Assembly: GCF_964204645.1 (NCBI RefSeq)
Contig: NC_134030.1
Location: 16,120,110-16,184,109, forward strand
DNA from: Tubulanus polymorphus
Taxonomy: Eukaryota > Animalia > Nemertea
Reading direction: 5' to 3'
DNA length: 64,000 nt
Position 1 is the first letter of the stretch; each line of letters opens with the position of its first letter. Both the position numbers and the translations under genes were made by a program. Below the pieces are notes generated by a model. The model made no database searches. It was not told the DNA's origin and was given only the letters and a program-made list of their open reading frames with translations. Below, one piece after another: positions 1 to 33,487 of the stretch.

Positions 1-27
1 ATTTCTATCATCTATCCATATGAGTTG

Positions 28-656
28 CATATGAGCTATCCACGTTCCCGTCTCGACCCGTTACTGTCTCGACCCGTTCCCGTCCCGACCCTACCGTACA
101 ATAGCGCCACCGCAGTCGATAATTTGAACTAAAACACTTCGGCGCGTATCGGATTCGTTTTTCGCATGTTATAAATGGTTGAAGAACGATCAGTGAAACA
201 TACCAACAATTCTAAAAAGTCAATTAGATTTTATAAAACTTTTCATTAAAAAGATCGAATGAAGAAAACGCCTCCAATGTCAACAGAGGTAAAAATTCAA
301 GATGCGAAGTTAGCAATTTCCAGTCGAGATTTCCTCCCAGAATATTACTGAAGTGGGTTTAAACTGTTTTCAAATGTAATGTTGAATAAATCATACGAGT
401 TTAATTATTTTGGTTTCAAGTTTCAAATGATATCAACTTTCGGCTTCAAATCTCTCAAAACTCAGTTCTAAAAATGACCCCTCTCGGCCGGGGGCATTTT
501 GTTTAGGGTACATTTTATTTTGCCATTAATCAGTTCGAATTCATCAAATTTATGAAGAAAATTAATGTATGAATTTTGCAAAAAAATAAAGATGATTGTT
601 AAATTTATAACGCGTTGTCTTTCTCTACCAGATCCCGTCGGTCTTTCTCCGATGGA
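28..656 (+). repeat. Left terminal inverted repeat, unique part
   Basis: Aligns in reverse complement with ~15110-15918, e.g. taccgtacaatagcgccaccgcagtcgat and cgaattcatcaaatttatgaagaaa; three 16-bp gttcccgtctcgaccc-type motifs at ~45-92. Confidence 0.9.
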
Positions 657-3600
657 CATGTTCCGGTCTCGACCCGTCACCTGTCTCTACTCTCTAGACA
701 GTCCCGTGGACGCTATGTTCCCGTCTCGACCCTTCACATCTGTCTCTACTCTCTACACAGTCCCGCGGACACTATGTTCCCGTCTCGACCCTTCAAATCT
801 GTCTCTACTCTCTACACAGTCCCGTGGACCCTATGTTCCCGTCTCGACCCCTCACATCTGTCTCTACTCTCTACACAGTCCCGTGGACCCTATGTTACTG
901 TCTCGACCCTTCACATCTATCTCTACTCTCTGCACAGTCCCGCGGACACTATGTTCCCGTCTCGACCCTTCAAATCTGTCTCTACTCTCTACACAGTCCC
1001 GCGGACACTATGTTCCCGTCTCGACCCTTCAAATCTGTCTCTACTCTCTAGACAGTCCCGTGGACGCTATGTTCCCGTCTCGACCCTTCACATCTATCTC
1101 TACTCTCTGCACAGTCCCGCGGACACTATGTTCCCGTCTCGACCCTTCAAATCTGTCTCTACTCTCTACACAGTCCCGCGGACACTATGTTCCCGTCTCG
1201 ACCCTTCAAATCTGTCTCTACTCTCTAGACAGTCCCGTGGACGCTATGTTCCCGTCTCGACCCTTCACATCTGTCTCTACTCTCTACACAGTCCCGCGGA
1301 CACTATGTTCCCGTCTCGACCCTTCACATCTGTCTCTACTCTCTACACAGTCCCGTGGACCCTATGTTACTGTCTCGACCCTTCACATCTATCTCTACTC
1401 TCTACACAGTCCCGTGGACGCAATGTTCCCGTCTCGACCCTTCAAAACTGTCTCTACCCTCTACACAGTCCCGCGGACACTATGTTCCCGTCTCGACCCT
1501 TCACATCTATCTCTACTCTCTACACAGTCCCGTGGACGCAATGTTCCCGTCTCGACCCTTCAAAACTGTCTCTACCCTCTACACAGTCCCGCGGACACTA
1601 TGTTCCCGTCTCGACCCTTCAAATCTGTCTCTACTCTCTACACAGTCCCGCGGACACTATGTTCCTGTCTCGACCCTTCAAATCTGTCTCTACTCTCTAC
1701 ACAGTCCCGTGGACACTATGTTCCCGTCTCGACCCTTCAAAACTGTCTCTACTCTCTACACAGTCCCGCGGACGCTATGTTCCCGTCTCGACCCTTCAAA
1801 ACTGTCTCTACCCTCTACACAGTCCCGCGGACACTATGTTCCCGTCTCGACCCTTCACATCTATCTCTACTCTCTACACAGTCCCGTGGACGCAATGTTC
1901 CCGTCTCGACCCTTCAAAACTGTCTCTACCCTCTACACAGTCCCGCGGACACTATGTTCCCGTCTCGACCCTTCAAATCTGTCTCTACTCTCTACACAGT
2001 CCCGCGGACACTATGTTCCCGTCTCGACCCTTCAAATCTGTCTCTACTCTCTACACAGTCCCGTGGACGCTATGTTCCCGTCTCGACCCTTCACATCTAT
2101 CTCTACTCTCTACACAGTCCCGTGGACCCTATGTTCCCGTCTCGACCCTTCAAAACTGTCTCTACTCTCTACACAGTCCCGTGGACCCTATGTTCCCGTC
2201 TCGACCCCTCACATCTGTCTCTACTCTCTACACAGTCCCGTGGACGCTATGTTCCCGTCTCGACCCTTCAAATCTGTCTCTACTCTCTACACAGTCCCGT
2301 GGACCCTATGTTCCCGTCTCGACCCTTCACATCTATCTCTACTCTCTACACAGTCCCGTGGACGCAATGTTCCCGTCTCGACCCTTCAAAACTGTCTCTA
2401 CTCTCTCAACAGTACCGTGGACGCTATGTTCCTGTCTCGACCCTTCACATCTATCTCTACTCTCTACACAGTCCCGTGGACCCTATGTTCGCGTCTCGAC
2501 CCTTCAAATCTGTCTCTACTCTCTACACAGTCCCGTGGACCCTATGTTCCCGTCTCGACCCTTCAAAACTGTCTCTACTCTCTCAACAGTCCCGTGGACC
2601 CTATGTTCCCGTCTCGACCCTTCAAACCTGTCTCTACTCTCTACACAGTCCCGTGGACCCTATGTTACTGTCTCGACCCTTCACATCTATCTCTACTCTC
2701 TACACAGTCCCGTGGACGCAATGTTCCCGTCTTGACCCTTCAAAACTGTCTCTACTCTCTCAACAGTCCCGTGGACCCTATGTTCCCGTCTCGACCCTTC
2801 AAATCTGTCTCTACTCTCTACACAGTCCCGTGAACGTTATGTTCCCGTCTCGACCCTTCAAAACTGTCTCTACCCTCTACACAGTCCCGCGGACACTATG
2901 TTCCCGTCTCGACCCTTCACATCTATCTCTACTCTCTACACAGTCCCGTGGACGCAATGTTCCCGTCTCGACCCTTCAAAACTGTCTCTACCCTCTACAC
3001 AGTCCCGCGGACACTATGTTCCCGTCTCGACCCTTCAAATCTGTCTCTACTCTCTACACAGTCCCGTGGACCCTATGTTCCCGTCTCGACCCTTCAAAAC
3101 TGTCTCTACTCTCTCAACAGTCCCGTGGACGCAATGTTCCCGTCTCGACCCTTCAAAACTGTCTCTACCCTCTACACAGTCCCGCGGACACTATGTTCCC
3201 GTCTCGACCCTTCAAATCTGTCTCTACTCTCTACACAGTCCCGTGGACCCTATGTTCCCGTCTCGACCCTTCAAAACTGTCTCTACTCTCTCAACAGTCC
3301 CGTGGACCCTATGTTCCCGTCTCGACCCTTCAAACCTGTCTCTACTCTCTACACAGTCCCGTGGACCCTATGTTACTGTCTCGACCCTTCACATCTATCT
3401 CTACTCTCTACACAGTCCCGTGGACGCAATGTTCCCGTCTTGACCCTTCAAAACTGTCTCTACTCTCTCAACAGTCCCGTGGACCCTATGTTCCCGTCTC
3501 GACCCTTCAAATCTGTCTCTACTCTCTACACAGTCCCGTGAACGCTATGTTCCCGTCTCGACCCTTCAAATCTGTCTCTACTCTCTACACAGTCCCGCGG

Positions 3601-3660
3601 ACGCTATGTTCCCGTCTCGACCCTTCAAATCTGTCTCTTCTCTCTACACAGTCTCATGGA
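657..3660 (+). repeat. 59-bp tandem array, ~51 units, left arm
   Basis: Unit gttcccgtctcgacccttcaaatctgtctctactctctacacagtcccgtggaccctat; register shifts 1 base per 60-base line, giving period 59. Confidence 0.97.
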
Positions 3661-4048
3661 TATGTTCGTGTCTAGAGCCTTCACATCCGTTTGAAGACAG
3701 TTTGTGGGACACCCTGACATATCTAATCGGTTTGTAATATTTCCAGTCAGTGGGACGAACCTTTTTAAAAAATGGAAATGAATATTACAGGTGGTCAAAT
3801 ATTTATTGATTAAAATCATGAAAAATCTACAAAATCGATGCTGACATGCTGAATACTGATACATCTACACATAAGGCAAATTTCTACAAATTTAGTGCAA
3901 TTCTCAGGAATACGTATGTACTAAACACATTAACATGCAAACTCATTAAAATGAACGCAAGGAACCAAATTATTACAACCGAGAGTTGTCATATTGGCCG
4001 AAATTCTAGGTTTTTGATAACCAATAAATCGGTATATCAGAAGTATAA

Positions 4049-7000
4049 CTAGGCTCCACTGTTTCTTGGCTGAATCCCGTGGTCTTCAATACGAAAGGCT
4101 TTCATTCTCATCTGAATTTCTTTATCATTTCTGCCTGTTGTAGCCCGACAAATCGTGAATGACAAATCATAACTTATATCGAAATATCTTGATACAAGAT
4201 AACACACAGCCTCCATCTTTATGGCTTCAATAAACCTGTGTCCACTAAAAATGTAACGACATGAAAAAACTGTTGATTATAGTATATGCATGAAACGCAT
4301 ACTGTAAGAGCAAGTGAGGTTTTACGTATGGGACTCGACCTTACCTTATCCAGTCTTTCAGAATGTACGATATGATTTTATTCGGTGCCATAAATGGAAT
4401 GCGTACCGGTGGGTACTGTATATACATACTTAAAAAAAGGAAATTAAAATAGCAACAAATCATTGATATCGAATCATGATAGTGATCTTTTGTGATGGTG
4501 CAGCGAATCATATTCTTGGTGTACCGTACCTTGGGTGTAGATAAATCTTTTTGCATATTGCTTGCGTGGCCCAAACATAGATGAAGTTAAGAGCACTTAA
4601 ACGAATAACCATTACACCGTGTCCTTTGCTTGATAGTGGTTCAGGACGTATATATTTTTGGACAAGCCTGGAAAATAATAAAATATTATTATTCGAATTC
4701 AAAGTGGGCCTATACAAAATGTCGTGTGCGATGTAACTTTGACTTTACTTTATAAGGAAACATTAGTATGTAAATTAATAAAATTAGTGATAAATTTGTG
4801 TAATAAGCATCACAGAATTATCAAAACTTAGCGAATATTTGATATTTTCGGATGGTTTTCAGCATGTACAAGTACTGCCGTACCGTACATATAATATGCT
4901 TTCATCTTAAGAGCAATTAAAAGTCACAATTGCAAGCAGAATATAAATCAAAGCTTACAAACACTGTTCTTGAGTCAATGTATTTGTTATATATCGGTTG
5001 AGGTCATCAAGCTGTAAAAAATGAAAATACTGTACATCAAAATAGATTCACATGGGCACATTTACAATCAATCCGTCGTTGGCAAGATTAAGCTGAAAGC
5101 CACCAAGGCTCTTTTGCCTTTTAGGATATATATGAAACTGACGTGAGATCTATTTGTTACTTGAATAGCATGCTTTACGCAAGTTGAAAATAAAATTCTT
5201 ACAATTGCGCGCCGTTTTTCCAATAAATACTTGAGAGGGACTTGGCGACCATCATCGTTTTCTGAAGTGTCTGGTTCAATTTTCTGAAAGCACGCCCCAC
5301 AGATCATGTAGTCAGGAAACCTTAAAAAATACATATATTTTCACATGGGGTGGTGAGTGATAAAGTTTTGCTCACTAACTCTCATATCCTACACCCACCT
5401 TATCTCAAGTTCTTTGCAACAGATACATTTTTTCTCATTTCCATCTTTAAACAATGCATCCTAAAATTCGATATTATTCAAGACATAGCAAAAAGCAAAC
5501 AGATTCAACTGGCACTGAAATCTGTTTTGCGAGGCCCATCGAATAAAATCAACAAGAACACAAAAGCCGATTAGTCCAAAAAAAAACTTGAATTACCTCC
5601 CATGTTCTTCGCAACTTCTCAATTTGGCACATGGGACAACGGTAAGAATAATTGAACGTGTAGTCATCCGAATTTCCACCTATACACTCTGGGTGTATGG
5701 CCCAGTTGCAATTAAATCCATTGCAAACTATCACTTTCTTACTACAAAAACAAAAAGATTTTTGGTGTCCTTTACAAACCCACCATACCTGATGGGAGCG
5801 AAGTTTTAACTGAATGCGAAACTCACCATTTATTTGAACAGAAACAAAAGATCTTCCGTTTTCCACCTAACTCACTAACATCTTTTAATCTGCAAACTGG
5901 AACCTAAAACAAAGTGTGCTATTTTTCATTTATCATGGACTTAACCCAACATTAACGCATATATTGTAAATAACAAACCTGACGAGCTCTTGTTACTGCA
6001 AGCCCCCGAATTGTTTTCTAAAATATTGGATATCAAATTTTGATTGATGCAAGGCATAAATAATCAATCACTTCGAAATAGAAGATTCACTACATAGATC
6101 CTTTTCGACGTTTGATACAAAAATACAATAATCTAGGATAAGCTGCAAAGGTAAATACGTATAAAAGTATGATTTATAGGAGATCCAGTTACAGGGTTTC
6201 CAGTTAAAATTTGATTCTAGACTTAATACAATTCAAATCAACTAAAGGGCTAAATAACTGTGGAACCGGTCATTTGTTTTTTCCAAGTACCATTCTTTTA
6301 CTGCTGATACATTTCTCACAAGTGAAACCAATTCGTTCTGCCTCCTGTTGCGACAAGTCACCAAGTCCTATACATACAGGATGGTACCACTCAACGCACC
6401 TTTCGCATGCGATGTATAAGCTACAAAATATCAAATATCTAATGTAATTCGGAATTATAATAATCTTATTAGAGCTATGTATGTAATCATGATACACTAA
6501 CCCTCCTGTATCGATTTTTTTACAAATACAATATTTCGCAGCTGACTGTGGCAATTCATAGAAAAAACTGCTGCGTCGTCTTGTCTGAAAAAGTGCATTT
6601 GATATTTTCAATTATCTGCATTCTACGTTAAACTAAACTTCTTCAACCTGCTACCACCGGTACCATACCTTCTTTGGATTTTCTCGGAGCTTCACCGTGG
6701 TTCTCGTTTCCAAGACCTGTCTTTGCTATAAAAAAGTGACATGACATACAATTTTTAACGAGCACAAAGACACCATTCCTTAATTTTGATACATATCAGG
6801 AATGCATGAAAAAAATACTTGTAGAGAATGCACCTCAAAAAAAAGTTCATCGCGCGTAGACATTTCTGGTGTTGGGTCATTCACCTATAAATCAAAGAGA
6901 TCACATGAAATTAGTGAAACCTACATGCTGTTTGAATATGGCTCAGATAACTAAGATATACCTCATATATTATATTTTCCTCGCCTATTTGCTGTTCGCG

Positions 7001-10000
7001 TTCATCGCGAGTAGACATTTCTGGTGTTGGGTCATTCAGCTATAAATATAAAAGTAAGTAGAAACTGTAAATTAGTAAAACTTTATCCTCACATTTTCAA
7101 CTAATGTTGTTACTTCATATTTTCATATGGCCTACCTCTAATGATGTTGCTGGGCAAGAGGCATTGGTCACAGAATATATAGCTCCATTGCTGCTTTGAT
7201 TTTTCAGATAATCTAGTCCTCGGAAGAGATCAAGATCGATAGGCAGGGGCTGACTGGAGTCAATCAGACGGAAAGTATTGTCATTAAACTCCAGTACCAA
7301 CCAGTGGTCTGTATCACTGGGCTTAATAATCATCTTTCTTTTCAAGGATGTTTGCAAAAATGCACTTGTCAACAGTTCAGTCAATTCTTCATAGGTCCTT
7401 GAGTTTTTTACACCTGATACAATGTTCAGAACTTGAAACCCACGTTGCTCTAGACATTCCATGATCACATCCATCGAATAAAATCCCTCTCTATCCCTCA
7501 GGGCAGATATCATGCAGGTTGGGCCAATTCCTGGATTTTGCAACTGCCTAATCCACATTTCGTCTGATACACGATCCATATCATATACTGAAACACTGAA
7601 CGAGCCATCTTCATCTGATCCAATCGCATTATTGACCGCACAGAGTCCGCAGTAGTTGGTGGATCCTTGGATCTGCATAAAATCTCCTCGTTGAGTTTTC
7701 ACTGATTTCACTTCAGCATGTCTGTTTGGTAATGCTGTTTGACCAATAACTTGAGCCGCGTATCTGAGGTTGCTGTGGGCTGCAAGCAGTTCATCACCAT
7801 TTAGATTATCGAAGTCAAGGTTTCGGAAAATATCACTGACATCCGAATTTAGAACTGCACGTAGATATGATGTACATTCGCTTCTCTGTCGATCACTATT
7901 ATGACTGACTTTGGGTACAAAGGAAGACGATGTAGTATTTTCTGTATGACGTGAAATATTTGGAACAGAATTCGATGAGTTCGGGAAACTTTCGTTGCCG
8001 TGGAGAGAAGCATCGAGTCCACGCGTCATATCGCGAACAAACGCCCGTCCAAACTGATCTCGATCAAGCATGTCATTGCCTAGGTTTTCTCTAAGTTTAT
8101 TTACGAGGGCATTGTTTATTTCTTCATTTCTCAAGTGCGAAGCGAGCCGGAAAACAAACATGTGAGTCGCCGGATTCATATTGTTGAGGAAATGAAGATT
8201 CTTTTTTCGGTTACTGAATTCCTGCTCAACCCGCTGACTGTCAATTAAACCTCCAACATTATCCAAAAGAGATATCCTCCGTAAAATCTCAACAGGACTC
8301 TTACAGTTTTCTTGATGAAACCAATCGTACAGGATGTAGTGGTGAGATGAACGTGTTATTGGATGATCCTCATTTCCTATAGGTTCTGTGTTTGGTTCAT
8401 AAATATATTTCAAGAATGTGGCCTCAAACGTGATTTGTCTTGTCTTTGCTTGCGCAATATTTTCATCGGAACTCTCTGCTAATCGACCATCGTGGGGTCG
8501 ATACATATCACCATATCTGGAATTGGCAAACCTCGCCACAAGGTGAGCACTGTCACAGATAGATATTGTTGGTCGATGTTTCAGTGATCTCTCCAAGTCA
8601 ACGTAGTCGCGAGGACTTTCACCCCGAAAATTGTTCTTTATGCAATATGTTACACCGTGGTCGCAACATCCAACTGCCCAGCCACCTTTCAGAAAAAAAA
8701 AACGCAAAATAATGCTATGTTTATGCGATTTTTGCGATGACAATGCGCGCGAGTGCGCGGTGTGTTCCTTACCGGTATGGCCAAAAATATCTTCATATAG
8801 GCTGTCGAACTTTGACCGAGACATCGACATACTTCTGAGGCGTAGAATCATGTCATTCGTAGACCCCTTGGAATCTACTTTCGCCTTCTTACAAAACTTT
8901 CTGATTTCCTTTACCTGCATCACAATGCGATTTATATAACGTATAGGACCTACCATTGTGTTAGTACTGACTAGTACATCATTTTACTTTCACAAAAGTG
9001 GAAGGTTTTACATATGCAATGCATAAAATGTGTACCTTCTCATTTTTCAGGAGATGCTCCAAAGTATCAGGATGGATAGGCTCAACTCCTTCAGAACCAC
9101 TATCTGTCGAGCACTTTTCAAATTCAGTGTTTATCAGAATTTCTGACTTTCTGGTATATTTCCCAATCCAAGGACTCCAGCATTCAAATGAAGGCCTCAC
9201 AACATGTTCTACAAAAATTGAATACGTTTATCAAAAAACTTTTGAAACCGCATTTCACACACATGATCTGCCAGATGAAAATTTTATACATAATTAACAT
9301 GATGTTGGATTTGAGTTTCTACCTTTATGGCATTTCGATCCTTTGCTCACTATTTCCTTTTCGATATCATTCCAGAAAGAAACGCAGTCGACTTCCTCGT
9401 TCAAAGATACTGGTGGCGCCAAATCTGAAACTGAAATAAGAGATAATTCATTCACAGTTCTATCTTATATAGACTAGATATAATGTATATCCCTATGGGA
9501 GGGGGTGCGTGTACACCCTCCTAAAATTGCCAAGCTTCTTTGTGATTTGGGAAAATAAATATTAAGCTGATACCTAAGAAAGTTTAAATTCGTCTCTTGT
9601 TCTCTGTATTTCCAAGAATGAGTTAACGTTTTCCGAGGAGGTTTTTTCGGGGTGTCTCGTAATTATATGATATGCCCTATTTTGGGGGTTCACCCTACCT
9701 GAGTCAGACCCTGGATTTCCTTGATCAAACTGAAACTAATACACAGAATACACAGAATACGCAGAACAGTCATAGACTCACGGTTGTAACGAAAACAGGC
9801 TTTTCGGAATGTATCCCATATCAATATGGGTGGGTAGTATCCACAGGATATGCAATAGAAGTCATAGCTATGACTTGTCATAGCTTCATAGTGGAGATAC
9901 CCTTGCTGTAACGAGTTTAAAGGTATTTGCTCTCCTGATAGAGACGTCAGAATATTAATTGAGGTTTGTATAGCCACGTGATTCTGAAAATACAAGCAAA

Positions 10001-12665
10001 AATCATAAAATATGTAATTAATAATTAAATGATAAGGTATTAAATGATATTACATTTTTCGATGCGTTGATAAAACATAGTCAAAAAGTGATGATCACAT
10101 TTGCAAAATATATCATAAATCACCATATAATAATTATCTAACAATGTTATGAGTAAATACCTTTATTCCTTCTCGGATGGTCTTGCACAGCTCTAATGTC
10201 ATAAATGTAGAATTGTTGAAGTTATGAATGCCATCTTGCCATTCCTGATAGCGATATGTCATCCCACATCCAATGCATTTCTTTATATGAACAGGTATAT
10301 CTACCAAATCAATTGAAGAATAATATATACGATAAAAAGAAACTGAATATTCACGAATATAAATAAGATAAACCTTCATATAATGTCCTACGTACTTTTA
10401 TGAACTTCATGAATACCAAAGATTCTACCAGAGCCAACTAATTGAGGGGACAATGTAGCATTGCAAGAAACGCATGACTCTTCACGAGGAACTATTGTTG
10501 AAATCTGTGCAACCTTGGTAGTGAGATCAGATGGTAAATCAACAGGTACCAGTTTTCTTTCAATTACGTACTGCAATTCTTTTTCATCAAGTTCGTTGTG
10601 GTTCGTTGTGGTGCATGGTTGGTTGGTTCCTGTTGTAACCGTAGCTCTATTATATTGGTTGTTATACCATGTACAACAAACTTTATGGACGCAGAATTTA
10701 GAGCCTTTGATACAATTACATCGATACAGTTTTCTCATACTGTCATACACCACAACCGTACGGCCCAATTTCGAATAATATCTCTTATCCTTGCACAGAA
10801 CAGAAAAATACCGATAACGATCAGACTGATCAAGAATCAAAGAGATTAGAGGAACACCATCTCTCAATGACTTTTCATACAGAGCTTCGACTTTTGGAAT
10901 ATGCTCGGCTTTAACGATGTTTCCATCAGCTAGTTCATTCAAATATTTCACATCCAATATTGGATTGTTCACAGTTGCGGTTACATAACTGACGGATTTT
11001 AGATGGGCGCATTCAAATGAATGATTACTTGAGATGGCAGCCGCATGCTTTGCATCCCTACAGCTCCTCAATTCACAGAAAATTTCTGAATTTTCTGTCG
11101 TTTTCTTTTTTACGTGAATCGGATTTGAATGTCCGATCATCGATGGGAAAACGGCAAATATCCCCTGTCTATTGTCGACGCAAACTGCTCGGTGGTGATG
11201 TCGCTCAGTGATCCTGCTTGCCGCCGCAGCTTTATTTTTCTGACATATATGGATATGTATTTTCATCCATTTCGAAGACAAAACTTTTTCACAATGGGGA
11301 CATTTCTCCGTTTTCTTTTGTTTGGTCGCATTGTTGCAACTATTAGTGTTGCACTGTTGTTTTTCTCTTACATGAGAAACAACAGGTTGCTGTTTTGGAT
11401 GACAACATTTTTCCATATGTTTAGAGAGTCTTCTTCTGTCGTGTGCTTTGTGATCACAAAAAAAGCAATGGTAGTGAGATCGCTTCATACAGTTTTGATG
11501 ACAGATAACACTATATAATCTTGAAATGGAAAAAAAGAAATATAAAAATCTACCTTTTGCAAATAGTCGCAATTGAGCAAAAACGCGATTTCCAGTAATT
11601 ATAGGGATATGTATGGTGGCTGATTCGGATCACGTAAAAAAAGAGAAATTATCCCACTCGATCTCCACCAATTTTTTTTACATATTAAAAACGTTGTTTT
11701 ACGCTACGTCAAGAACAAAGTTTAATTTAGAACGAAAAACTGGTTTTAACGTGGCATTAAAAAGAAAAATGTAGAATTCGAAAATTGGTGGAAACCGAGT
11801 GTCATCTATTATTTTTTTAATGTGGCCCGAATCACGAACCAGCCACAATAGACTATATGAGATCGTGCCAGTTCATTCCCCGCTTTCCTGGGACCGGTTC
11901 CATAATCAGGGCTTAGACTTAAGCGGCCGTCGCGTTATATAGCCTTGCATAAATCACAACATAACGAAACAAGACTACAAAACGCACTAGTTCAATGGCA
12001 CGAAGCTCTTTGAAAACCATCGTTTCGATAATTTTGGATTCCATATAGTTTTCGAAACAATTACATTCATAATTTATTTCAATTCACCATTTTGAAATAT
12101 TCACGTTTCTATTTTTTTTGGAAGAGAAAAATATATTGTTTATTCTTTATGTATCATTGATCGAATCTGAAATTAGATCGTATACCTCAGCTCAGTGACA
12201 TTGAAAATTCGTTGATAGACTTTTTATTTCAGATGATTCTATAGTGATGGCCGCTTGCTCTGGAGGTTTTCAGTAATGAAAATGAGTCAATTTTCATCTA
12301 AATGATGTGCCCGACAAAAAACGTTTTTACCTCATCGGTCAGATTTTTCATCACCCGTTGAGAAACTAATCGATTCAATTTAATGTATATATAAACCAAA
12401 AATGGAATACACAAGAAATTTAAAACCTAAAGAAGACTCACCGGTCTGAATCGTCTCTGTCCCTCAGAGGTACGGGTATTCTGGTCGTCCAGTGCACCTG
12501 CGACAAGTGTTGGTCGACATGATGTTTTTTCTTAGGCTTATACCTGACGTTGCTACATAAAGAGCAGTGGTACCTTTCACTTGGAGGTCTGTCCATGCAA
12601 CAGGTCAAAATACAAGGCTGGAGCCCAGCCTTCAAGTCGGACACATTCTTGAAGAAAGTGGCCAT
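4049..12665 (-). CDS. Multi-exon KDZ (HMGXB3/Kyakuja-like) transposase: Zn fingers, SWIM-like, CxC, SAP-like, KDZ catalytic core, Josephin DUB, PHD fingers
   Basis: ATG at 12665 (MATFFKNV); GT-AG exon boundaries readable at 12442, 11519, 10396; in-frame 87-nt intron 8686-8772; last exon ends in TAG at 4049-4051. Core GHTGGWAVGCCDHGVTYCIKNNFRGESPRDYVDL...ISICDSAH and YDWFHQENC resemble HMGXB3-type KDZ transposases. A single-transcript model is inferred. Confidence 0.75.
5549..5866 (-). CDS. Second PHD-like finger exon of the KDZ gene
   Basis: FCFCSKKVIVCNGFNCNWAIHPECIGG...YRCPMC. Confidence 0.65.
   Translation of the reverse strand: MENGRSFVSVQINGEFRIQLKLRSHQVWWVCKGHQKSFCFCSKKVIVCNGFNCNWAIHPECIGGNSDDYTFNYSYRCPMCQIEKLRRTWEVIQVFFWTNRLLCSC
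6270..6560 (-). CDS. PHD finger exons of the KDZ gene
   Basis: KYCICKK...(intron)...YIACERCVEWYHPVCIGL...FTCEKC: C4HC3 pattern. Confidence 0.8.
   Translation of the reverse strand, partial: YELPQSAAKYCICKKIDTGGLVYHDYIHSSNKIIIIPNYIRYLIFCSLYIACERCVEWYHPVCIGLGDLSQQEAERIGFTCEKCISSKRMVLGKNK
7115..8956 (-). CDS. KDZ gene: SAP-like motif, catalytic core and Josephin domain (ORF reads through an in-frame intron)
   Basis: VKEIRKFCKKAKVDSKGSTNDMILRLR (SAP-like); GGWAVGCCDHG, ESPRD, CDSAH, DWFHQ, SQRVEQ core motifs. Confidence 0.8.
   Translation of the reverse strand: MVGPIRYINRIVMQVKEIRKFCKKAKVDSKGSTNDMILRLRSMSMSRSKFDSLYEDIFGHTGKEHTAHSRALSSQKSHKHSIILRFFFLKGGWAVGCCDHGVTYCIKNNFRGESPRDYVDLERSLKHRPTISICDSAHLVARFANSRYGDMYRPHDGRLAESSDENIAQAKTRQITFEATFLKYIYEPNTEPIGNEDHPITRSSHHYILYDWFHQENCKSPVEILRRISLLDNVGGLIDSQRVEQEFSNRKKNLHFLNNMNPATHMFVFRLASHLRNEEINNALVNKLRENLGNDMLDRDQFGRAFVRDMTRGLDASLHGNESFPNSSNSVPNISRHTENTTSSSFVPKVSHNSDRQRSECTSYLRAVLNSDVSDIFRNLDFDNLNGDELLAAHSNLRYAAQVIGQTALPNRHAEVKSVKTQRGDFMQIQGSTNYCGLCAVNNAIGSDEDGSFSVSVYDMDRVSDEMWIRQLQNPGIGPTCMISALRDREGFYSMDVIMECLEQRGFQVLNIVSGVKNSRTYEELTELLTSAFLQTSLKRKMIIKPSDTDHWLVLEFNDNTFRLIDSSQPLPIDLDLFRGLDYLKNQSSNGAIYSVTNASCPATSLEVGHMKI
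7170..7690 (-). CDS. Josephin (ataxin-3/JOSD-like) cysteine-protease domain within the transposase
   Basis: FMQIQGSTNYCGLCAVNNAIG (Cys codon 7649-7651), EGFYSMDVIMECLEQRGF, DHWLVL (His 7304-7306), RLIDSSQPLP (Asp 7259-7261); His-to-Asp spacing of 15 residues, as in ataxin-3 H119/N134. Confidence 0.8.
9690..9995 (-). CDS. KDZ gene exon: Cys-cluster (HMGXB3 CxC-like) segment; ORF bounds, exon is internal
   Basis: QGYLHYEAMTSHSYDFYCISCGYYPPILIWDTFRKACF matches the HFEAL..Y.F.C..CG..PP..I.D pattern of HMGXB3-like proteins. Confidence 0.7.
   Translation of the reverse strand: MYFQNHVAIQTSINILTSLSGEQIPLNSLQQGYLHYEAMTSHSYDFYCISCGYYPPILIWDTFRKACFRYNRESMTVLRILCILCISFSLIKEIQGLTQVG
10396..11519 (-). 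CDS. KDZ gene exon: C2H2-type Zn fingers and SWIM-like motif
   Basis: HYHCFFCDH, CPHCEKVLSSKWMKIH, YRCNCIKGSKFCVHKVC within ORF 10388-11572; splice signals at both ends. Confidence 0.7.
11600..11860. mobile_element. Small foldback/MITE-like insertion in intron 1 (approximate bounds)
   Basis: gtggctgattcgg...actcgatctccaccaatttt mirrored by aaaattggtggaaaccgagt...ccgaatcacgaaccagccac. Confidence 0.45.
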
Positions 12666-13180
12666 TATTTTGAATATATTTCTACTATGCGGACATCACA
12701 AAACCGAGCACATCAATAACGCAAAGTTTTCGGTCTCTGGTATCTTCAAAGCAGTATTTGTAATACCAACGTTTAAGACCATGGATCGTGTCCCCGATAA
12801 GAAACGATTGAAATGAGCGTTTGTTTCAGTTTTCTATATGTTTTTTAAGAGTTGAGGTTGACGGGAGTTACTCAATTAGAGCATACCAACGTTAGTGATA
12901 CAACAGTTCTGTCAACACTAAGAAACCATTAAGCATTTGCCAGGTTTCTACGTTGTACATCTTCTAGGCTATATATGACAGCAATGCATTAAAACCATTT
13001 GTGATTAATTATATGCAACATCCTATGTTCTAACCGTCATAAACAGTTCCCACAAACACTGAAATAAATGTGTTTCGATGCTTATGTACCGTAACGCGAC
13101 GATGAATTTCATTAGCTATAATCGTTTGTATACATTTTACATAACTTGAACTTGAACCCATCGAAGTCTAATCGATGAGA

Positions 13181-13258
13181 GGCGCGGTGGCCGAGTGCAT
13201 TATGCCGCAGGTCGCTGGTCTCTTCAATTCACGGTTTGGTTCAAACCCTGGTGGCGAC
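13181..13258 (+). other. Degenerate tRNA-like sequence (Pol III A/B boxes), SINE-head-like
   Basis: ggcgcggtggccgagtgc (A box) and ggttcaaaccc (B box) at tRNA-like spacing; no convincing acceptor stem. Confidence 0.45.
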
Positions 13259-13506
13259 AATATTTCTCGGTCGAAGGTTCTTTTCTCCATTTAATTAGGA
13301 AAAAGAATCATCGAACCCTACGTGGCGCTTAGCGGTTTAAGAGTTTAAAAATAAGTCTAAAATAAGTCTTATTACGGTAAACAGCATTATTTACAGTGCA
13401 CGGGAAATTATAACTTTTGGGAGTAGAACGTGGTTTTCTGAATCTCCGGTCGCCGGAGACAGTTTTATGGGTCGACTAGATGGGAACGACAGGTGTGACG
13501 GGTCCA

Positions 13507-15110
13507 GGCGGGAACATAGGGTCCACGGGACTGTGTAGAGAGTAGAGACAGGTTTGAAGGGTCGAGACGGGAACATAGGGTCCACGGGACTGTGTAGAGA
13601 GTAGAGACAGATTTGAAGGGTCGAGACGGGAACATAGCGTCCACGGGACTGTGTAGAGAGTAGAGACAGATTTGAAGGGTCGAGACGGGAACATAGGGTC
13701 CACGGGACTGCGTAGAGGGAAGAGACAGATTTGAAGGGTCGAGACGGGAACATAGGGTCCACTGGACTGCGTAGAGGGAAGAGACAGTTTTGAAGGGTCG
13801 AGACGGGAACATAGCGTCCGCGGGACTGTGTAGAGAGTAGAGACAGTTTTGAAGGGTCGAGACGGGAACATAGTGTCCACGGGACTGTGTAGAGAGTAGA
13901 GACAGATTTGAAGGGTCGAGACAGGAACATAGTGTCCGCGGGACTGTGTAGAGAGTAGAGACAGGTTTGAAGGGTCGAGACGGGAACATAGGGTCCACGG
14001 GACTGTGTAGAGAGTAGAGACAGATTTGAAGGGTCGAGACGGGAACATAGCGTCCACGGGACTGTGTAGAGAGTAGAGACAGATTTGAAGGGTCGAGACG
14101 GGAACATAGCGTCCAAGGGACTGTTGAGAGAGTAGAGACAGTTTTGAAGGGTCGAGACGGGAACATAGGGTCCACGGGACTGTGTAGAGAGTAGAGACAG
14201 GTTTGAAGGGTCGAGACGGGAACATAGTGTCCGCGGGACTGTGTAGAGAGTAGAGACAGTTTTGAAGGGTCGAGACGGGAACATAGCGTCCACGGGACTG
14301 TGTAGAGAGTAGAGACAGTTTTGAAGGGTCGAGACGGGAACATAGCGTCCACGGGACTGTGTAGAGAGTAGAGACAGTTTTGAAGGGTCGAGACGGGAAC
14401 ATAGCGTCCACGGGACTGTGTAGAGAGTAGAGACAGATTTGAAGGGTCGAGACGGGAACATAGTGTCCGCGGGACTGTGTAGAGAGTAGAGACAGATTTG
14501 AAGGGTCGAGACGGGAACATAGTGTCCACGGGACTGTGTAGAGGGTAGAGGCAGATTTGAAGGGTCGAGACGGGAACATAGGGTCCACGGGACTGTGTAG
14601 AGGGAAGAGACAGATTTGAAGGGTCGAGACAGGAACATAGTGTCCGCGGGACTGTGTAGAGAGTAGAGACAGATTTGAAGGGTCGAGACGGGAACATAGG
14701 GTCCACGGGACTGTGTAGAGGGAAGAGACAGATTTGAAGGGTCGAGACAGGAACATAGTGTCCGCGGGACTGTGTAGAGAGTAGAGACAGATTTGAAGGG
14801 TCGAGACGCGAACATAGGGTCCACGGGACTGCGTAGAGGGAAGAGACAGATTTGAAGGGTCGAGACGGGAACATAGGGTCCACGGGACTGCGTAGAGGGA
14901 AGAGACAGATTTGAAGGGTCGAGACGGGAACATAGGGTCCACGGGACTGCGTAGAGGGAAGAGACAGTTTTGAAGGGTCGAGACGGGAACATAGCGTCCG
15001 CGGGACTGTGTAGAGAGTAGAGACAGTTTTGAAGGGTCGAGACGGGAACATAGCATCCACAGGACTGTGTAGAGAGTAGAGACAGATGTGACGGGTCGAG
15101 ACAGGAACAT
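13507..15110 (-). repeat. 59-bp tandem array, ~27 units, right arm, inverted relative to the left array
   Basis: Reverse complement of the left-array unit; period 59. Confidence 0.97.
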
Positions 15111-15918
15111 CGGAGTAAGATAACGCGTCATGAATTTAACAATCATCTTTATTTTTTTTTGCAAAATTCATACATTAACTTTCTTCATAAATTTGATGAA
15201 TTCGAATTGATTAATGGCAAATAAAACATGCCCCAAACAAAATGCCCCGGGCCGGGTCGTTTTTAGAAAAAAACGGTTTGAGAGATTTAAAGAAAGTTGA
15301 TTTTATTTTATAGAAACCAAAATAATTACACTCGTGTAATTTATTCAAGATTATATTTGAAATTAGTTTAGCTTTACCAGTAAATATATATTATTTCTAG
15401 GAGGAAATCTCGACGGGAAATTGCTTACTTCACTTCTCGAATTTTTTGTCCTGTTGACAGTGGAGGCGTTTTCTTGGCAAAAGTGCAGATCCACACCTCT
15501 CGTGATTGACGCAATCTGCTGAATGACAGAATCCAGGCTAAAATCTTTCTATGGAAGATACCCGGGTGAAGATATCTAAAAATTAACCAATGGCAATGTA
15601 CTGAATTGCTGAATTTTGAATCTGAAATATTGATATCATATGTAGGCCCTAATTGATTGAACCGTTTATGCGGAGAGGTGTGGATCTGCACTTAAGCTTA
15701 TACCGTTTCCTTCTTCGATCTTTTCAATGAAAAGTTTTCAAAAATCTAATTGACTTTTTAAAATTGTTGGTAGGTTCACATGCGAAAAACGAATCCGATT
15801 CGCGCCGTAGTTGTTTAGTTCAAATAATCGACTGCGGTGGCGCTATTGTACGGTAGGGTCGAGACGGGAACGGGTCGAGACAGTAACGGGTCGAGACGGG
15901 AACGTGGATGGCTCATAT
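15111..15918 (-). repeat. Right terminal inverted repeat, unique part, with a ~230-bp segment (15476-15703) absent from the left arm
   Basis: Direct comparison with 28-656. Confidence 0.85.
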
Positions 15919-15947
15919 ATATATGATCCATATGAGTTAAACTGCAG

Positions 15948-16418
15948 CGTCCCGTGAGAGGACCCGGGCCTGTGACGGGACATGGGTCCGCTCACGGGAC
16001 AAATGTAGAATTCTTACATGAAACGTCGATTCCAATGCTAGCGGTTTCGAGTCTCAATATTCTTATGTATTCTGCCTATAACGATTATGAATAAATAAAT
16101 TCAACTATCGATTGTAATTATTACATTTTCCATTTTGATTTCATTTATAAATACATAGGCCTGCCGAAAAATTCTAATTTACTGCAGGGCCAGGGGACAA
16201 TAGGGGATATGAATGCACGTTTTTCACGCAGGATTTTACAACGGAACCCGACTATTTTTCACGGGAGAGTATTTAAAAGTGGGTCCTCTCACGGGGCAGT
16301 ATTTAAAATCGGGTTCCTTCACGGAACAGTAAGTTGATTCGGGTCCTCTCACGGGACAATATTTAAAATCGGGTCCTCTCACGGGACAGTATTTAAAATC
16401 GGGTCCTCTCACGGGACA
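15948..16418. mobile_element. MITE-like element with subterminal ~30-bp repeats
   Basis: gtcccgtgagaggacccg at the left is inverted as cgggtcctctcacgggac at the right; ~5 tandem atttaaaatcgggtcctctcacgggacagt-like units at ~16255-16418. Confidence 0.6.
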
Positions 16419-16935
16419 GAAACACAGTCAGTTCACCAGGTAGACAGGTGGACAGGAGACAGAAACAGTCAGGTCTCCGGCCAGGTTAACAGAAGAGATA
16501 CATTCAGGTAGACAGGTGGACAGAAGACAGTCAGGTCTCCAGTAGAAACGAGACGATTACACAGTAGGTCTCTGTGAGTGAACAGATAGACATTCAGTAA
16601 CGGATGGGTGCGACAGGTGGACAGTTAGATGGATACTTACGAAAGAGAGGTGTTTTCAGCGATATACCGAAACTCTCCTGTACTGCGCGATCTTTCCATG
16701 GCCTCAATTATAACCACGTTAACTAAGTTTTCAATGCGTGAACGATATCATCAACTGCTATCATGTCCACAGACAATGCATTACATAAACAAGGAAAAGC
16801 GTATTTGTATCCACAGAGCATGTACAGGTTTCAGGGCATGGATGGGGCAGTTTGCCCCAGACATTCTTATAAAGCGCCCTCAGCTCAAATGTTGGGATGA
16901 CTGACGTCCGAGGATTAAAAACCTAGATACGGCCG

Positions 16936-17224: not shown

Positions 17225-18931
17225 TCAGGCCAGTTCAGTACCATCATCATCGGTGATACGTCCGGAAACTATAGTGTGAATCAGTTCGTACTGCGGATGA
17301 TCTTTGATGACGTCAAGTAGTTGCCGGGACATACTTTCAACGGTGGCAAATTTTATTTTGTAGCGCTCGTGATCAATTGTGGCATCTTTCAGAAAGGGAC
17401 ACTGTTCAGGTATTGAGTCAGGTGCTGGCTTGAAAAATATTGGCTTCGTTAATGATGTTTTTTTTAAATGTTTTTGTTTAACGATGTTTTTACACATATC
17501 CAAAACCCACGGTCTGTAGTTGCTCCAGTTCGACTGCAAACAATAAGTTGACAATACATGAAAACATAATAAACATACGCGAATTTTGATTTGCAGTAAT
17601 TTTCGATTGACTTACTCTGAATTTGCTGCGATTGTGACCCCTTTATGTGCTTCTGAATGCTTCTAATTTCTAGAATTGAACCATCCAGGTGACACACTGC
17701 CTGTAACAATTTCAGGCGGAACGTCTTAATGGTTCCAATAGCAACCGTTTCCGCAGCCGATGGAAGCGTCTTAACTTGCCTGTAACATATTTCAAATTAC
17801 AATGAAGTGAAATGACGATGCAGTAACATTATTGAAAGAAATGATAAAGGTACCTCGGTATTATAGTGATTTCGAATATAATGTGCGAACTGTTACATAT
17901 GGAAACAGGCCTACTTAAATCGAGAAATATGGTTTTCTGTTGGTTGATCACATGCAGGAGCTTGTTGGCGGCTTGCAGGTGTTGGACGTTGATCGTGACT
18001 GGAATTTGAATCGGCCTTTCTTGATCAAGACAGTTAAAAACATACTCCAGAATGTGAATCGTAGCGGCCAGTCTTAAAACGTGTACCATATGACGTTTGG
18101 ATGACGTGTGCATGGGCTCATTTTCGTAAGCTTGGGAAATCGTCAGATATTGACTTTGGGTAGCTTCGTTTTCTGAAATGATAATAATAACAAAATGCTT
18201 ATGCATGCTGATGTCCAGTAATACAAAGTCGCCATCTATCCATTATCACTACTAAAATCGATACACCCAATGAATAAGAAACGACATGGGCGTAGTGAGA
18301 AGAATCAATGTATATTGACAGATATGTATATTTACCGTTTTCGGAATCAGTAGCATATTGGTCGTTAATGAACGATATGTAGGCATCTGTGATTGTGTCG
18401 AATTGAGCTGTGGCCTCCTCGTCCAATACATACATACTGTATGTCCGCATCCTTATGAATATCATAGATGTGTTTGAATATGTTTTCCACGTCAGAGATT
18501 CGATGATCACGCAGCTGTGTTACATGTTGTTTATTGACTGCAGACGTATACGCTTTCGGTTTCGTAACGAAAAACAGTAATCGGTCGATGAACCCATCAT
18601 TCGTACTAAACATCGCGCCTAGTTCATTAATTAGCGGTTCGACTTGCACTAAAATGTGCATACCGAGAGCAGTTTTCTCAAAACCACGCTCTCCAGTGGA
18701 TAATGTACTGGCATCGCCGATACCGCCCCACATTTTGCACACAAGGCTTCTTTCCGATTCACCTTTGTGCTGTTTGTTAATAATCTGCTGCAATAACCGG
18801 CTGCCTTCATCACTAATAATTAGGCCGTAGCCTTTGTTTTTCGATTGATGGTGCGGAATTCCGGCTGTCGAATATGTTTCGAGTTGCAAATTGTTTGTCG
18901 TATCAGCGGTATATTGGCGAAGGCCCGGCAT
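17225..18931 (-). pseudogene. Spliced DUF3987/YfjI-like (helicase-related P-loop) gene, apparently 5'-truncated
   Basis: GLIISDEGSRLL (Walker-B-like), ERSLVCKMWGG, LGMHILVQ, DGFIDRLLF, HVLRLAATIH; several exons with GT-AG junctions; no Walker A exon recognised upstream. Confidence 0.55.
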
Positions 18932-19464
18932 GACAACCGATCATCATGTGGTTGTAGTCCTCAAATTCAATTACAAGTCGGCAAACAATATTGGGCCCAA
19001 TATTGTTTTACACTTTGATATTTTTGCCTAAAAACCTCTAAAAATCGGTGGTTGGCGCAAGCAAAAGACATGAATAAAACAATTGGTAAAATGAATAAAA
19101 CAAAATAGACTTGGTTACACTACGGTGCAAAAGTAAAGGAATGCTCACATCGACAGTTCACGATGTATTGCATTTAGTGTCTACCTGACGACCCCAATTA
19201 CAGATAAACAGCAGGGGAATCTTCACATCGACAGTTCACGACGTATTGCATGTAGTGTCTACCTGCCAACCCCAATCACAGATAAACAGCCGATTTACTC
19301 AATTGAATTTACGCATATCGCACTATTTCGACGTATATCGGAGCCGAAATCTTTAATTAACTAAAATTCACACCATTCATTCTATATTTAAACTTGACAT
19401 GGAGTGGACATTATTCAATGTTGTGGTTGTAGTAGCCAATTTGCTCTCTCACTCGTCACAACCG

Positions 19465-22417: not shown

Positions 22418-22589
22418 AGCCGGTTCATGCCGACAAACTGGCATATGACAAAAAATCTTTCAAAGAGTTATTTGGCTACAAACTTTGCGTTGTTTACTGA
22501 CATACTGACAAACCGACATACTCATAGCCCCTCGATCCAGCCACAGGTAATCCAGGGGAAAACCCTGTCCCTCGATCCTAGCAATATTT

Positions 22590-25809: not shown

Positions 25810-26016
25810 CTTAAAATATTCATATACATGAATAACATTTAAATTGACAGATTATTCAATATAAAAGTATATATTTACAACATTATTTCAATATTCATAT
25901 TTGTATGAGTTAGATGTTTAAACATTAAAAGTGTTAGTAAAGTGTGATTGAAATAATACATGATATAAATCATTGAACTTCTAAAATCAATTTAGTAAAA
26001 AAAATATGTATAATAA

Positions 26017-28776: not shown

Positions 28777-28830
28777 AATGATAAAGTCATTGAAACTAAA
28801 TCTAAATTATTATTAATGGATTAAAATAAG

Positions 28831-30526: not shown

Positions 30527-30554
30527 CTATTTATAATTTGGAATATTATAGAAA

Positions 30555-30788: not shown

Positions 30789-30866
<78 letters not shown>

Positions 30867-30945: not shown

Positions 30946-30959
30946 TAGTTTTATAACAA

Positions 30960-32187: not shown

Positions 32188-32219
32188 TTATTATATAAAT
32201 TTTTATTAAAGTTAAAATT

Positions 32220-33467: not shown

Positions 33468-33487
33468 TTATTTAACAAAAAAATTAA

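Follow-up and report, generated by a model that had tools for sequence, protein, structure and literature searches.

We analysed a window of 64,000 nt from the nemertean Tubulanus polymorphus (GCF_964204645.1, NC_134030.1: 16,120,110-16,184,109, forward strand), together with contigs of the runs X1, X2 and X3 and the raw reads of X5, which come from a sample different from that of the window. Positions 28-15925 are a single DNA transposon of the Zisupton type, 15,898 bp long, in an invertebrate host. Its termini read 5'-CA...TG-3'. The 3' terminus was placed where contigs from other copies depart from the window, at 15925/15926 (X3 record 18 and X2 record 10); it is known from these two contigs because read depth stays high for about 500 bp further, the flank itself being a repeat. 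In other copies of the family, the flanks beyond 15925 differ, as seen in contigs and reads. A 13-bp direct repeat, ATCCATATGAGTT, found by eye and by motif scan, stands at 14-26 on the left, where it is a candidate target-site duplication, and at 15926-15938 on the right, with G27 separating the left repeat from the element tip. The first-pass annotation, which had drawn the element from 27 to 15925, was right about the right end; the left end lies at 28. It had also called the element a giant transposon; a transposon it is, with defined ends, a flanking direct repeat and a multi-copy family in an independent sample, but at 15.9 kb it is large rather than giant. The passage of PMC12730594 on target-site duplications gives 8 bp for Zisupton and Dileera and 7 bp for Kyakuja. 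Neither an 8-bp nor a 7-bp duplication was found here, the 13-bp repeat being the sole direct repeat at the ends of this single copy; full read-through was available for one copy only, and the left flank within the window measures 27 bp. A neighbouring repeat family at 15929-16440 has the same design of tip motif and subterminal array, with another motif and another period.

The interior carries a multi-exon gene on the minus strand, encoding a CxC4 cluster, a SAP domain, the transposase core, a Josephin domain and two PHD fingers. The N-terminal region at 10430-11503 (tblastn with P0066 residues 67-480, E 5e-29) contains, by eye, C2H2-like fingers and a CxCx6CxH (SWIM-like) signature; it gave no Pfam match and is a candidate DNA-binding part. 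A possible upstream exon with a C2H2-like finger at 12438-12695, also on the minus strand, was taken from the ORF list only, without homology support, and its place in the gene is uncertain. The CxC4 exon at 10140-10301 was identified with PF18717, which matched 10134-10397 on the minus strand (E 2.6e-8, 34.2 bits against a cut-off of 26.9), and the cluster lies N-terminal to the core, as the KDZ-associated cluster does. The core begins with a tblastn block at 9792-10019, holding a CxxC and the start of the RNase H-like part, and continues at 9114-9437 in two exons, also found by tblastn and compatible with frame-keeping GT-AG introns. The block at 8036-8941 encodes the SAP domain and the C-terminal half of the catalytic core (BLASTP with fish P0011, E 3e-49; tblastn), and includes an in-frame stretch of about 29 codons that relatives are without and that is probably an intron. 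All six near-invariant acidic columns are kept in the long exon of the window, which the core shares with a Josephin-like cysteine protease domain at 7118-8035 (Pfam, AF2 and Foldseek). The Pfam match to Josephin fell below the cut-off (E 2e-5); the AF2 model reached pLDDT above 90 over residues 360-610, and all nine PDB matches found by Foldseek at E<=1e-3 for this region were Josephin-type. Towards the C-terminus follow a PHD finger exon at 6309-6587 (Pfam PHD, E 5.4e-6; tblastn with P0001 residues 665-730) and the exon or exons of a second PHD-like zinc finger at 5573-5891 (tblastn with P0001 residues 757-836). Every homology block can be bridged by frame-keeping GT-AG introns, and the gene is apparently intact.

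This gene proved collinear with residues 67-964 of the Xiphophorus hellerii protein P0066 in five tblastn blocks running from 11503 to 8057 (E 5e-29 to 7e-44), that is, homologous over about 900 residues to a Zisupton transposase of the Kyakuja-Dileera-Zisupton (KDZ) group. P0066 and the platyfish Zisupton protein agree in length and in where CxC7 lies, at 1333-1391 in P0066 and, according to PMC12062965, at 1333-1393 in the platyfish protein. Homologues of the core numbered 551 representatives at E<=1e-3. The Pfam model of the KDZ core, PF18758, matched no window exon at E<=5, none of four fish Zisupton-type proteins at E<=1 and none of 37 long representatives at E<=0.01, with one faint match in the relative P0003 (0.04); the model appears not to cover this clade. 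The KDZ identity proposed at first pass is borne out by collinearity with the Xiphophorus Zisupton-type protein, PF18758 being silent on the window and its fish relatives alike. The window's own core folds poorly in AF2 (pLDDT <50). For P0045, a fish relative with 32% identity to the window core block, the AF2 model was confident (pLDDT 85.5), and its nearest structure was that of the ISCth4 transposase (Z 9.5 over 209 aligned residues), ahead of the Tn5, Mu and retroviral integrase cores; a Foldseek search for the catalytic DDE fold returned no match at E<=1e-3. The Ulp1 (C48) tail of fish Zisupton is absent, with Josephin in its place by both Pfam and fold. Protease tails among the 37 long relatives comprised Ulp1 in nine, UCH in five, Josephin in three and OTU in one. 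Assignment by transposase to the Foldback/MuDR or Galileo/P superfamily was rejected, as no MULE-type or THAP/P-type Pfam family matched any window ORF.

Each arm consists of a unique terminal inverted repeat (TIR) and an inner array of 59-bp units. The left array, at 658-3660 on the plus strand, holds 50.9 units with internal segmental duplications, and the right array, at 13488-15110 on the minus strand, holds 27.5 units (Tandem Repeats Finder and motif scan). Internal match was 91% in the left array and 94% in the right, whose consensus is the reverse complement of the left one. In the inverted-repeat scan the arrays paired at 92-93% across about 1.63 kb in each 59-bp register, and the inverted symmetry ended where the inner ends of the arrays lie. 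The arms make up 6,071 of the 15,898 bp of the element, 4,626 bp of this being 59-bp array at the lengths assembled. The architecture recorded at first pass, a unique TIR plus an inverted array of about 3.0 kb on the left and 1.6 kb on the right, together about 6 kb of arm, was recovered by Tandem Repeats Finder, the inverted-repeat scan and BLASTN. The left array contains exact repeats of 345 bp at a lag of 708 and of 243 bp at a lag of 354, and the right array one of 171 bp at a lag of 413. Unit types number 27 in the left array and 17 in the right, six of them common to both. Blocks of units have been duplicated inside each arm, and unit variants are mostly arm-specific.

The left unique TIR spans 630 bp at 28-657 (plus strand; tip CATATGAGCTATCC), as delimited by BLASTN against the reverse complement of the right end, and the right one 815 bp at 15111-15925 (minus strand; tip, as reverse complement, CATATATATATGAGCCATCC), as delimited by BLASTN and the terminus in other-copy contigs. 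The two align inverted in three segments: 29-169 with 15918-15778 (134/141 identical, so that the outer 141 bp form a 95% identical TIR, as in Zisupton/KDZ elements), 197-270 with 15776-15704 (67/74, 91%) and 262-625 with 15475-15113 (306/375, 82%). The extra length of the right unique part comes from a high-copy MITE of about 229 bp, foreign to the element proper, which is nested in it at about 15476-15704. Copies free of it show the joint 15475->15714 (X2 and X3 contigs and seven X5 reads) or 15423->15706 (46 X5 reads), and 700 and 250 reads have loose ends in this region; read by eye, the MITE bears its own TIR and a flanking repeat of about 9 bp. Of the unique TIR length given earlier as 0.6-0.8 kb, the lower figure is accordingly that of the TIR, and the 0.8 kb on the right is 0.6 kb plus the nested MITE.

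Tips and arrays share a 16-bp motif, GTTCCCGTCTCGACCC. Each tip has three tandem copies of it and every 59-bp unit has one, in a single orientation within each arm. The tip repeats (3.1 copies each by Tandem Repeats Finder, and seen in the motif scan) lie at 43-91 on the plus strand and 15856-15904 on the minus strand. A scan of the 64 kb for CCCGTCTCGACCC with at most one mismatch gave 78 matches against 0.02 expected, well above chance: 49 in the left arm, all on the plus strand, and 29 in the right arm, all on the minus strand. There were none in the rest of the 64 kb, and none between 3624 and 13558. The motif is also the least variable part of the unit: across 76 complete units, positions 3-18 carried 1.1 mismatches per site compared with 4.5 elsewhere, and the seven 16-nt windows of lowest variation began at unit positions 1-7. 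Since the units of an array are not independent, this conservation could stem from recent homogenisation of the arrays instead of selection.

The family is multi-copy in X5. The interior had a depth of about 15 and the unique right arm one of 117-137, so that the arm is about eight times as abundant as the interior. An internally deleted derivative that keeps both arms is abundant; its joint, 4252->13561, was found in 51 X5 reads, and at registers shifted by 59 bp in 15 and 8 more. The segment at 3661-4252, retained in this derivative, had a depth of 32-55 compared with about 15 in the interior. The joint is absent from those listed for the X1-X3 contigs, in which a single X2 loose end at 4254 is all that points to it. 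Two features of the Foldback class are present here: copies short of most or all of the central region are numerous, as indicated by the ratio of about eight and the deletion joint, and long TIRs made of tandem repeats form a large share of the element (6,071/15,898 bp). The first-pass annotation had suggested that the element could seed satellite DNA, form very large hairpins or promote rearrangements; by a rough estimate from X5 read depth, the abundance of the 59-mer is about what the number of arms predicts, and nothing points to a large pool of satellite beyond them.

On balance, we favour a Zisupton-superfamily transposon whose arms combine a TIR with a 59-bp array, the arrays probably being stacks of putative transposase-binding sites built up through local tandem duplication. 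The arrays are likely to provide extra putative binding sites because each unit repeats the tip motif. In such a mechanism, the transposase would bind the 16-bp motif through its N-terminal zinc-finger region. The three copies at the tip would hold the DDE core in place for cut-and-paste excision, and the 47 + 27 copies in the arrays would raise the avidity and specificity with which the ends are recognised, as was shown for the THAP domain of Galileo, which has multiple binding sites within the tandem repeats of its long TIRs (PMC3688188). Unequal exchange or replication slippage may alter the number of units in each arm independently, leaving unequal arms. More speculatively, the Josephin and PHD tail might work on chromatin marked with ubiquitin, at the donor or the target site.

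Array growth could also have been neutral, a subterminal segment that chanced to include one tip-like motif having been amplified by slippage or unequal exchange, with no role for the arrays in transposition or even a hindering one. We regard this as the less probable course, though a serious one. Block duplications within arms and arm-specific variants reflect ongoing local amplification for which selection is not needed, the arms differ twofold in unit number, and the Tetris arrays, according to PMC4079207, grew into satellite DNA with no known role. Yet no part of the unit is better conserved than the motif, the abundant deleted derivative retains both arrays, the neighbouring family repeats the layout of tip motif and subterminal array with a different motif, and the Galileo transposase binds repeats of this kind (PMC3688188).

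It is very improbable that the inverted arrays, or their lengths, are products of a collapsed or mis-joined repeat in the assembly. The lengths of 3.0 and 1.6 kb do come from the assembly alone, and X1 may be the same sample as the window assembly; nevertheless, contigs of X1, X2 and X3 bridge both junctions of array and interior (records 1, 8, 9, 16 and 17), the array-to-TIR junctions are present in all three runs, in contigs that differ from the window copy by 25 nt, and raw X5 reads from the different sample cover 30/30 bins in both regions examined. The arrays also differ in unit variants, which a duplicated mis-join would not yield. We give equally little credence to a composite in which two non-autonomous foldback-type copies or solo arms, inverted, flank an unrelated Zisupton-type gene by chance. 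Arms about eight times as abundant as interiors imply that solo or short copies are common, making chance proximity possible, but the 13-bp direct repeat sits exactly at the outer ends, many reads of the derivative run from the inner left segment straight into the right array, as expected of a deletion inside one element, and the interior has no inward-facing termini (no motif at 3624-13558).

We found no report of foldback-type arms on a Zisupton element; the design is known from Foldback, Galileo and Tetris, and the earlier description of the architecture as Foldback/Galileo-like is apt as a structural comparison. In Drosophila, foldback-type arms are linked to chromosomal inversions and the birth of satellite DNA, and occur on P-type, Mutator-type or orphan elements. 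The element shares with fish Zisupton a multi-exon transposase collinear over about 900 residues with CxC4, SAP and core, TIRs, and a cysteine isopeptidase after the core. The fish tail consists of Ulp1, an F-box and CxC7, whereas here it is Josephin and two PHD fingers. The arms here measure 2.4-3.6 kb and are mostly 59-bp array, in a comparison that excludes the original TIR description (Bohne 2012), and the flanking repeat is 13 bp compared with the 8 bp reported in the cited passage of PMC12730594. Galileo (P superfamily, Drosophila) likewise has long, internally repetitive TIRs of a length that varies among copies, their tandem repeats carrying further transposase-binding sites, which are putative here (PMC3688188 and PMC3573991). 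Its transposase, with THAP and P-type domains, is unrelated; the present element is without a THAP match, and its arrays are far longer. Foldback and Tetris of Drosophila also have tandem-repeat arms, numerous copies that lack most or all of the interior, and repeats able to act as satellite, Tetris being non-autonomous with 220-bp repeats that also occur in independent arrays of kilobase size (PMC4079207). Unlike Tetris, the present element has an apparently intact transposase gene, and read depth suggests an amount of 59-mer close to that expected from the arms. In maize En/Spm (CACTA), short subterminal motifs are reiterated at both ends and bound by an element-encoded protein; they stand in both orientations, scattered over a few hundred bp. 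Here, in contrast, tens of units form a regular 59-bp array, and the transposase superfamily differs.

Its presence on an invertebrate Zisupton-type element shows that the foldback design arose independently on another, probable DDE transposase. Tentatively, and with less assurance than for the arrays as such, spiralian Zisupton-type transposons may have evolved foldback arms as a selected device, in which arrays of tens of putative transposase-binding sites would draw the transposase to the termini. In this genome, at least two sister families would have in common both the tip CATATGAG and the arrangement of tip motif and subterminal array. The usual SUMO protease tail would, in this lineage, have been exchanged for a Josephin deubiquitinase and PHD readers, as one case of a wider swapping of ubiquitin-like proteases among Ulp1, UCH, OTU and Josephin. 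The gene of this copy is apparently intact, the candidate binding motif is clear and the deleted derivative is abundant, which makes the role of the arrays directly testable; the variable ubiquitin/SUMO protease tail offers a second lead, on how these elements handle chromatin.

Tandem Repeats Finder placed two 59-bp arrays in the Zisupton-type element (window 28-15925), one at 658-3660 (50.9 copies, 91% matches) and the other at 13488-15110 (27.5 copies, 94% matches), and the consensus of the right array was the reverse complement of that of the left. The same program found a 16-bp repeat of 3.1 copies at 43-91 and likewise at 15856-15904. In an inverted-repeat scan every 59-bp register paired the two arrays, at 92-93% and over about 1.63 kb. 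BLASTN of the left end against the reverse complement of the right end gave three outer blocks: 29-169 with 15918-15778 (134/141), 197-270 with 15776-15704 (67/74) and 262-625 with 15475-15113 (306/375). Because the sequences just inside the arrays are unrelated, the inverted symmetry ends at the inner array edges, and each arm therefore consists of a unique terminal inverted repeat (TIR) plus an array. The left arm (28-3660) measures 3,633 bp and the right (13488-15925) 2,438 bp, summing to 6,071 of the 15,898 bp of the element. This bears out the first-pass annotation, which had described arms built of a unique TIR and an inverted array (about 3.0 kb left, 1.6 kb right) with a total of about 6 kb. 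Of its 0.8 kb for the right unique part, about 229 bp (~15476-15704) is a nested MITE with its own inverted ends AAGTGCAGATCCACACCTCTC and a flanking repeat of about 9 bp (AAGGAAACG / AAGAAAACG). Reads and contigs showed other element copies without the MITE (joints 15475 to 15714 and 15423 to 15706), and the MITE is itself a very high-copy repeat (loose ends of 700 and 250 reads). BLASTN returned no further copy of the element in the window from 16 to 64 kb (0 rows), and two motifs spaced 59 bp apart gave 0 matches in the metagenome contigs scanned.

The left end reads 5'-CATATGAGC... from 28 and the right end, in reverse complement, CATATATATATGAGC... from 15925, so that the termini of the element are 5'-CA...TG-3'. 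Each tip is composed of CATATGAGCTATCCAC followed by three 16-bp repeats of type GTTCCCGTCTCGACCC, a 16-mer that recurs in the 59-bp unit at positions 3-18. When up to one mismatch was allowed, CCCGTCTCGACCC had 78 matches in the window versus 0.02 expected: 49 on the plus strand, all in the left arm (2 tip, 47 array), 29 on the minus strand, all in the right arm (27 array, 2 tip), and none elsewhere in the 64 kb. Across 76 complete units the mean number of mismatches per site was 1.1 in the motif positions versus 4.5 in the remainder, and the seven least variable 16-nt windows begin at unit positions 1-7; these figures are descriptive and not a formal selection test, since the units are related by duplication. 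The predicted DNA fold of the tip was uninformative (z +1.6).

In the left array a 345-bp stretch is repeated exactly with an offset of 708 bp (12 units) and a 243-bp stretch with an offset of 354 bp (6 units); in the right array a 171-bp stretch is repeated with an offset of 413 bp (7 units). Unit types numbered 27 on the left and 17 on the right, only 6 of them common to both, and some unit variants were private to one arm. It follows that block duplication has remodelled each array where it stands, and this accounts for the difference in length.

Four sequencing runs of the same species were aligned beside the arrays and at the array edges. X1, X2 and X3 are contigs that stem from a single study, X1 possibly from the very sample that was assembled; X5 consists of raw Illumina reads from another sample and study, of which about 12% was read, with depths that sum both mate directions. 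The X5 depth was 6-25 (about 15) over the coding interior, 32-55 over the segment 3746-4437, 117-137 over the unique right arm and 449-1,146 in the array bins; the arms are thus about 8 times as abundant as the interiors. An array base-depth of 1.7-3.7 x 10^5 divided by the arm depth corresponds very roughly to 1.3-2.9 kb of array per arm, compared with 3.0 and 1.6 kb in the assembled copy, so the 59-bp satellite seems about as abundant as the arms predict, an estimate that is crude because reads below 90% likeness are lost, many fits are partial and the left and right arms map unequally. A joint from 4252 to 13561 was present in 51 X5 reads; variants of it in other registers lay at 13620 (15 reads) and 13502 (8 reads). 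It represents an internally deleted derivative in which both arms are retained. This joint had no row among the X1-X3 contigs, but one X2 contig breaks off at 4254 and continues as array sequence. In 12 X5 reads, 3678 was joined to 13561 on opposite strands, as in variant copies where no more than about 18 bp of inner sequence separate one array from the next. Very high depth, flanked on either side by loose ends (131-496 X5 reads), marked two interior stretches, ~5761-5802 and ~11887-11923, which are probably fragments common to high-copy repeats.

Contigs that derive from other copies set the right terminus: record 18 of X3 matches up to 15925 and continues with 48 nt of different flank, and record 10 of X2 matches up to 15926 before 515 nt of different flank. 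Depth alone does not mark this end, as the flank itself is repetitive. Directly outside both ends lies a 13-bp direct repeat ATCCATATGAGTT, at 14-26 (then G27) and at 15926-15938. The retrieved text of PMC12730594 gives duplications of 8 bp for Zisupton and Dileera and 7 bp for Kyakuja, whereas the 13 bp here come from one copy with 27 bp of left flank. Shifting the ends to obtain an 8-bp duplication was considered and rejected, because the direct repeat spans 13 bp and the tips would then mismatch.

Abutting the element, 15929-16440 forms the terminus of a second, high-copy repeat family, which begins CATATGAGTT... from 15929, has a tip octamer in common with the element and is overlapped over its first 10 bp by the 13-bp flanking repeat. 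Of the six copies of GGGTCCTCTCACGGGAC in this family, two lie close to the tip and four belong to a tandem array of 30-bp period at 16259-16419, so the layout of the element, with a tip motif and a subterminal array, is found here too. The half-sites CCCGT and GACCC are common to the motifs of both, at different spacings, and the depth of the family is similar to that of the arms. Its inverted partner end was not found in the window.

Two further explanations of the architecture were weighed against these data. That the arrays are an assembly artefact is unlikely, because both array/interior junctions are spanned by contigs in X1, X2 and X3, the unit variants differ between the arms, and the independent sample X5 agrees. 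Array-to-TIR junctions are likewise present in all three runs and carry a 25-nt difference from the right arm here, so these junction contigs derive from other arms. It is likewise unlikely that two short copies came to lie together by chance and now pass for one long element, as the direct repeat lies outside the outer ends and the deletion derivative retains both arms.

The interior holds a multi-exon gene on the minus strand, from about 12.7 to 5.5 kb. Its 622-codon exon (7118-8983) matched a nemertean Tubulanus protein (48% identity), bivalve Sinanodonta proteins and unnamed metagenome proteins, all of which have a Josephin domain. Longer relatives include a sea cucumber protein with CxC4, Ulp1, PHD and SprT domains and a fish protein with CxC4 and SAP; the family of the latter comprises 169 proteins, with CxC4 in most of the 120 listed and Ulp1 and CxC7 also in some. 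In the Xiphophorus hellerii relative P0066 (1,393 aa; CxC4, SAP, Ulp1 and CxC7), CxC7 lies at 1333-1391, close to the 1333-1393 stated for the platyfish Zisupton protein G3KL21 in the retrieved text of PMC12062965, and by this position P0066 is classed as a Zisupton-type transposase. Residues 67-964 of P0066 aligned with the window from 11503 to 8057 in five collinear blocks (E 5e-29 to 7e-44). All homology blocks can be bridged by stop-free, frame-keeping GT-AG introns in the predicted gene model, in which no lesion was seen. Since the Pfam KDZ core model PF18758 matched none of the window exons, the 4 fish relatives or the 37 long representatives, the Zisupton/KDZ membership rests on homology and CxC4. 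The core family is wide, with 551 representatives at E<=1e-3 and 298 at E<=1e-10. As leads only, the nearest Protein Atlas cluster to the core was 'HMG domain-containing protein 3' (0.96), a cluster with KDZ in 10% of its members stood at 0.85 to the core, and the N-terminal region was nearest to a CxC4 cluster (0.88).

The AF2 model of the core of P0045, a fish relative, was confident (pLDDT 85.5, pTM 0.81; 105-row alignment) and contains a SAP domain inserted at residues 348-409. Foldseek returned nothing at E<=1e-3 in the PDB for this model. An exhaustive structural search gave the ISCth4 transposase as the top match (Z 9.5, rmsd 3.7, 209 residues) and Tn5 transposase at Z 7.9, followed by lower matches to retroviral integrase cores, Mu, TnsB, IstA, piggyBac, Hermes, P and Mos1. 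The modelling supports an RNase H-like DDE core for the family, which would extend to the window protein by homology; the long exon of the window covers six near-invariant acidic columns and keeps all six.

The C-terminal domain of the window protein folds confidently (pLDDT >90, residues 360-610), and all nine Foldseek matches at E<=1e-3 were Josephin-type, among them bacterial JOS clippases, ataxin-3 and Josephin-2, while the Josephin part had no phmmer match among PDB sequences below E 0.15. Two PHD-type exons follow the Josephin domain. Judged from protein sequences, a ubiquitin/SUMO protease module seems to have been exchanged repeatedly on the transposase core. No report of a transposase fused to Josephin appeared among the titles and abstract openings of the literature matches listed; a search for HMGXB3 with transposase gave one unrelated paper, and one for Zisupton with Ulp1 or SWIM nothing relevant. 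Tail domains were counted in proteins P0133-P0260, relatives of window 8024-8983 on the minus strand. Among the 37 long core representatives the appended protease varied, with Ulp1/C48 in 9, UCH in 5 (two also with Ulp1), Josephin in 3 (one above the Pfam cut-off) and OTU in 1; other tail domains were PHD (7), F-box (3) and SprT (1). A tail that combines a SUMO protease with PHD and SprT is present in P0010 and P0158.

Elsewhere in the window, very AT-rich stretches (20-25% GC) with dense long ORFs lie at 26000-35000, 41000-44000 and 53000-64000. Their ORFs include an rve integrase that carries a chromodomain (28825-29919), a packaging ATPase of the poxvirus A32 type (29915-30523), pieces of a protein-primed family B DNA polymerase (54835-55981) and, at 54117-54914, a domain like endonuclease VII; the stretches look like Polinton/Maverick-type elements broken up by GC-richer insertions. 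Further mobile-element remains at 37729-40620, 48699-49424, 51044-51655 and 18368-18940 comprise a LINE endonuclease with reverse transcriptase, a GIY-YIG ORF, a Harbinger-type DDE_Tnp_4 fragment and a DUF3987 ORF. At 22570-23120 lies an unrelated tandem array with a 49-bp period (11.2 copies, 92% matches), and nine further flank ORFs between 16.6 and 25.3 kb had no Pfam family above its cut-off.

According to the retrieved text of PMC3573991 and PMC4079207, arms of tandem repeats are known in Foldback, Galileo and Tetris, and the repeats of Tetris later formed satellite arrays (PMC4079207). The first-pass annotation had called a Foldback/Galileo-like architecture unusual on a KDZ element, and this stands: the design is known from those three, and no report of tandem-repeat arms on Zisupton/KDZ was found among the literature matches listed, in a search that lay outside supplements and the original Bohne 2012 description. 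When Zisupton was combined with foldback, subterminal or internal tandem repeats or long TIRs, it occurred, among the matches listed, only in one reference list, and the main text of the 'Giant Transposons' review has no Zisupton, KDZ or Josephin. The closest tested precedent for transposase binding inside TIR tandem repeats, in the retrieved text of PMC3688188, is Galileo, whose THAP domain binds sites within the tandem repeats of its long TIRs. The main rival explanation treats the arrays as products of neutral amplification. The element is best read as one of Zisupton type that moves by cut-and-paste and whose arrays repeat candidate binding sites for its own transposase, where we infer both binding and benefit. 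Such arrays would lengthen and shorten through local duplication, and their sites may add avidity and specificity at the element ends.
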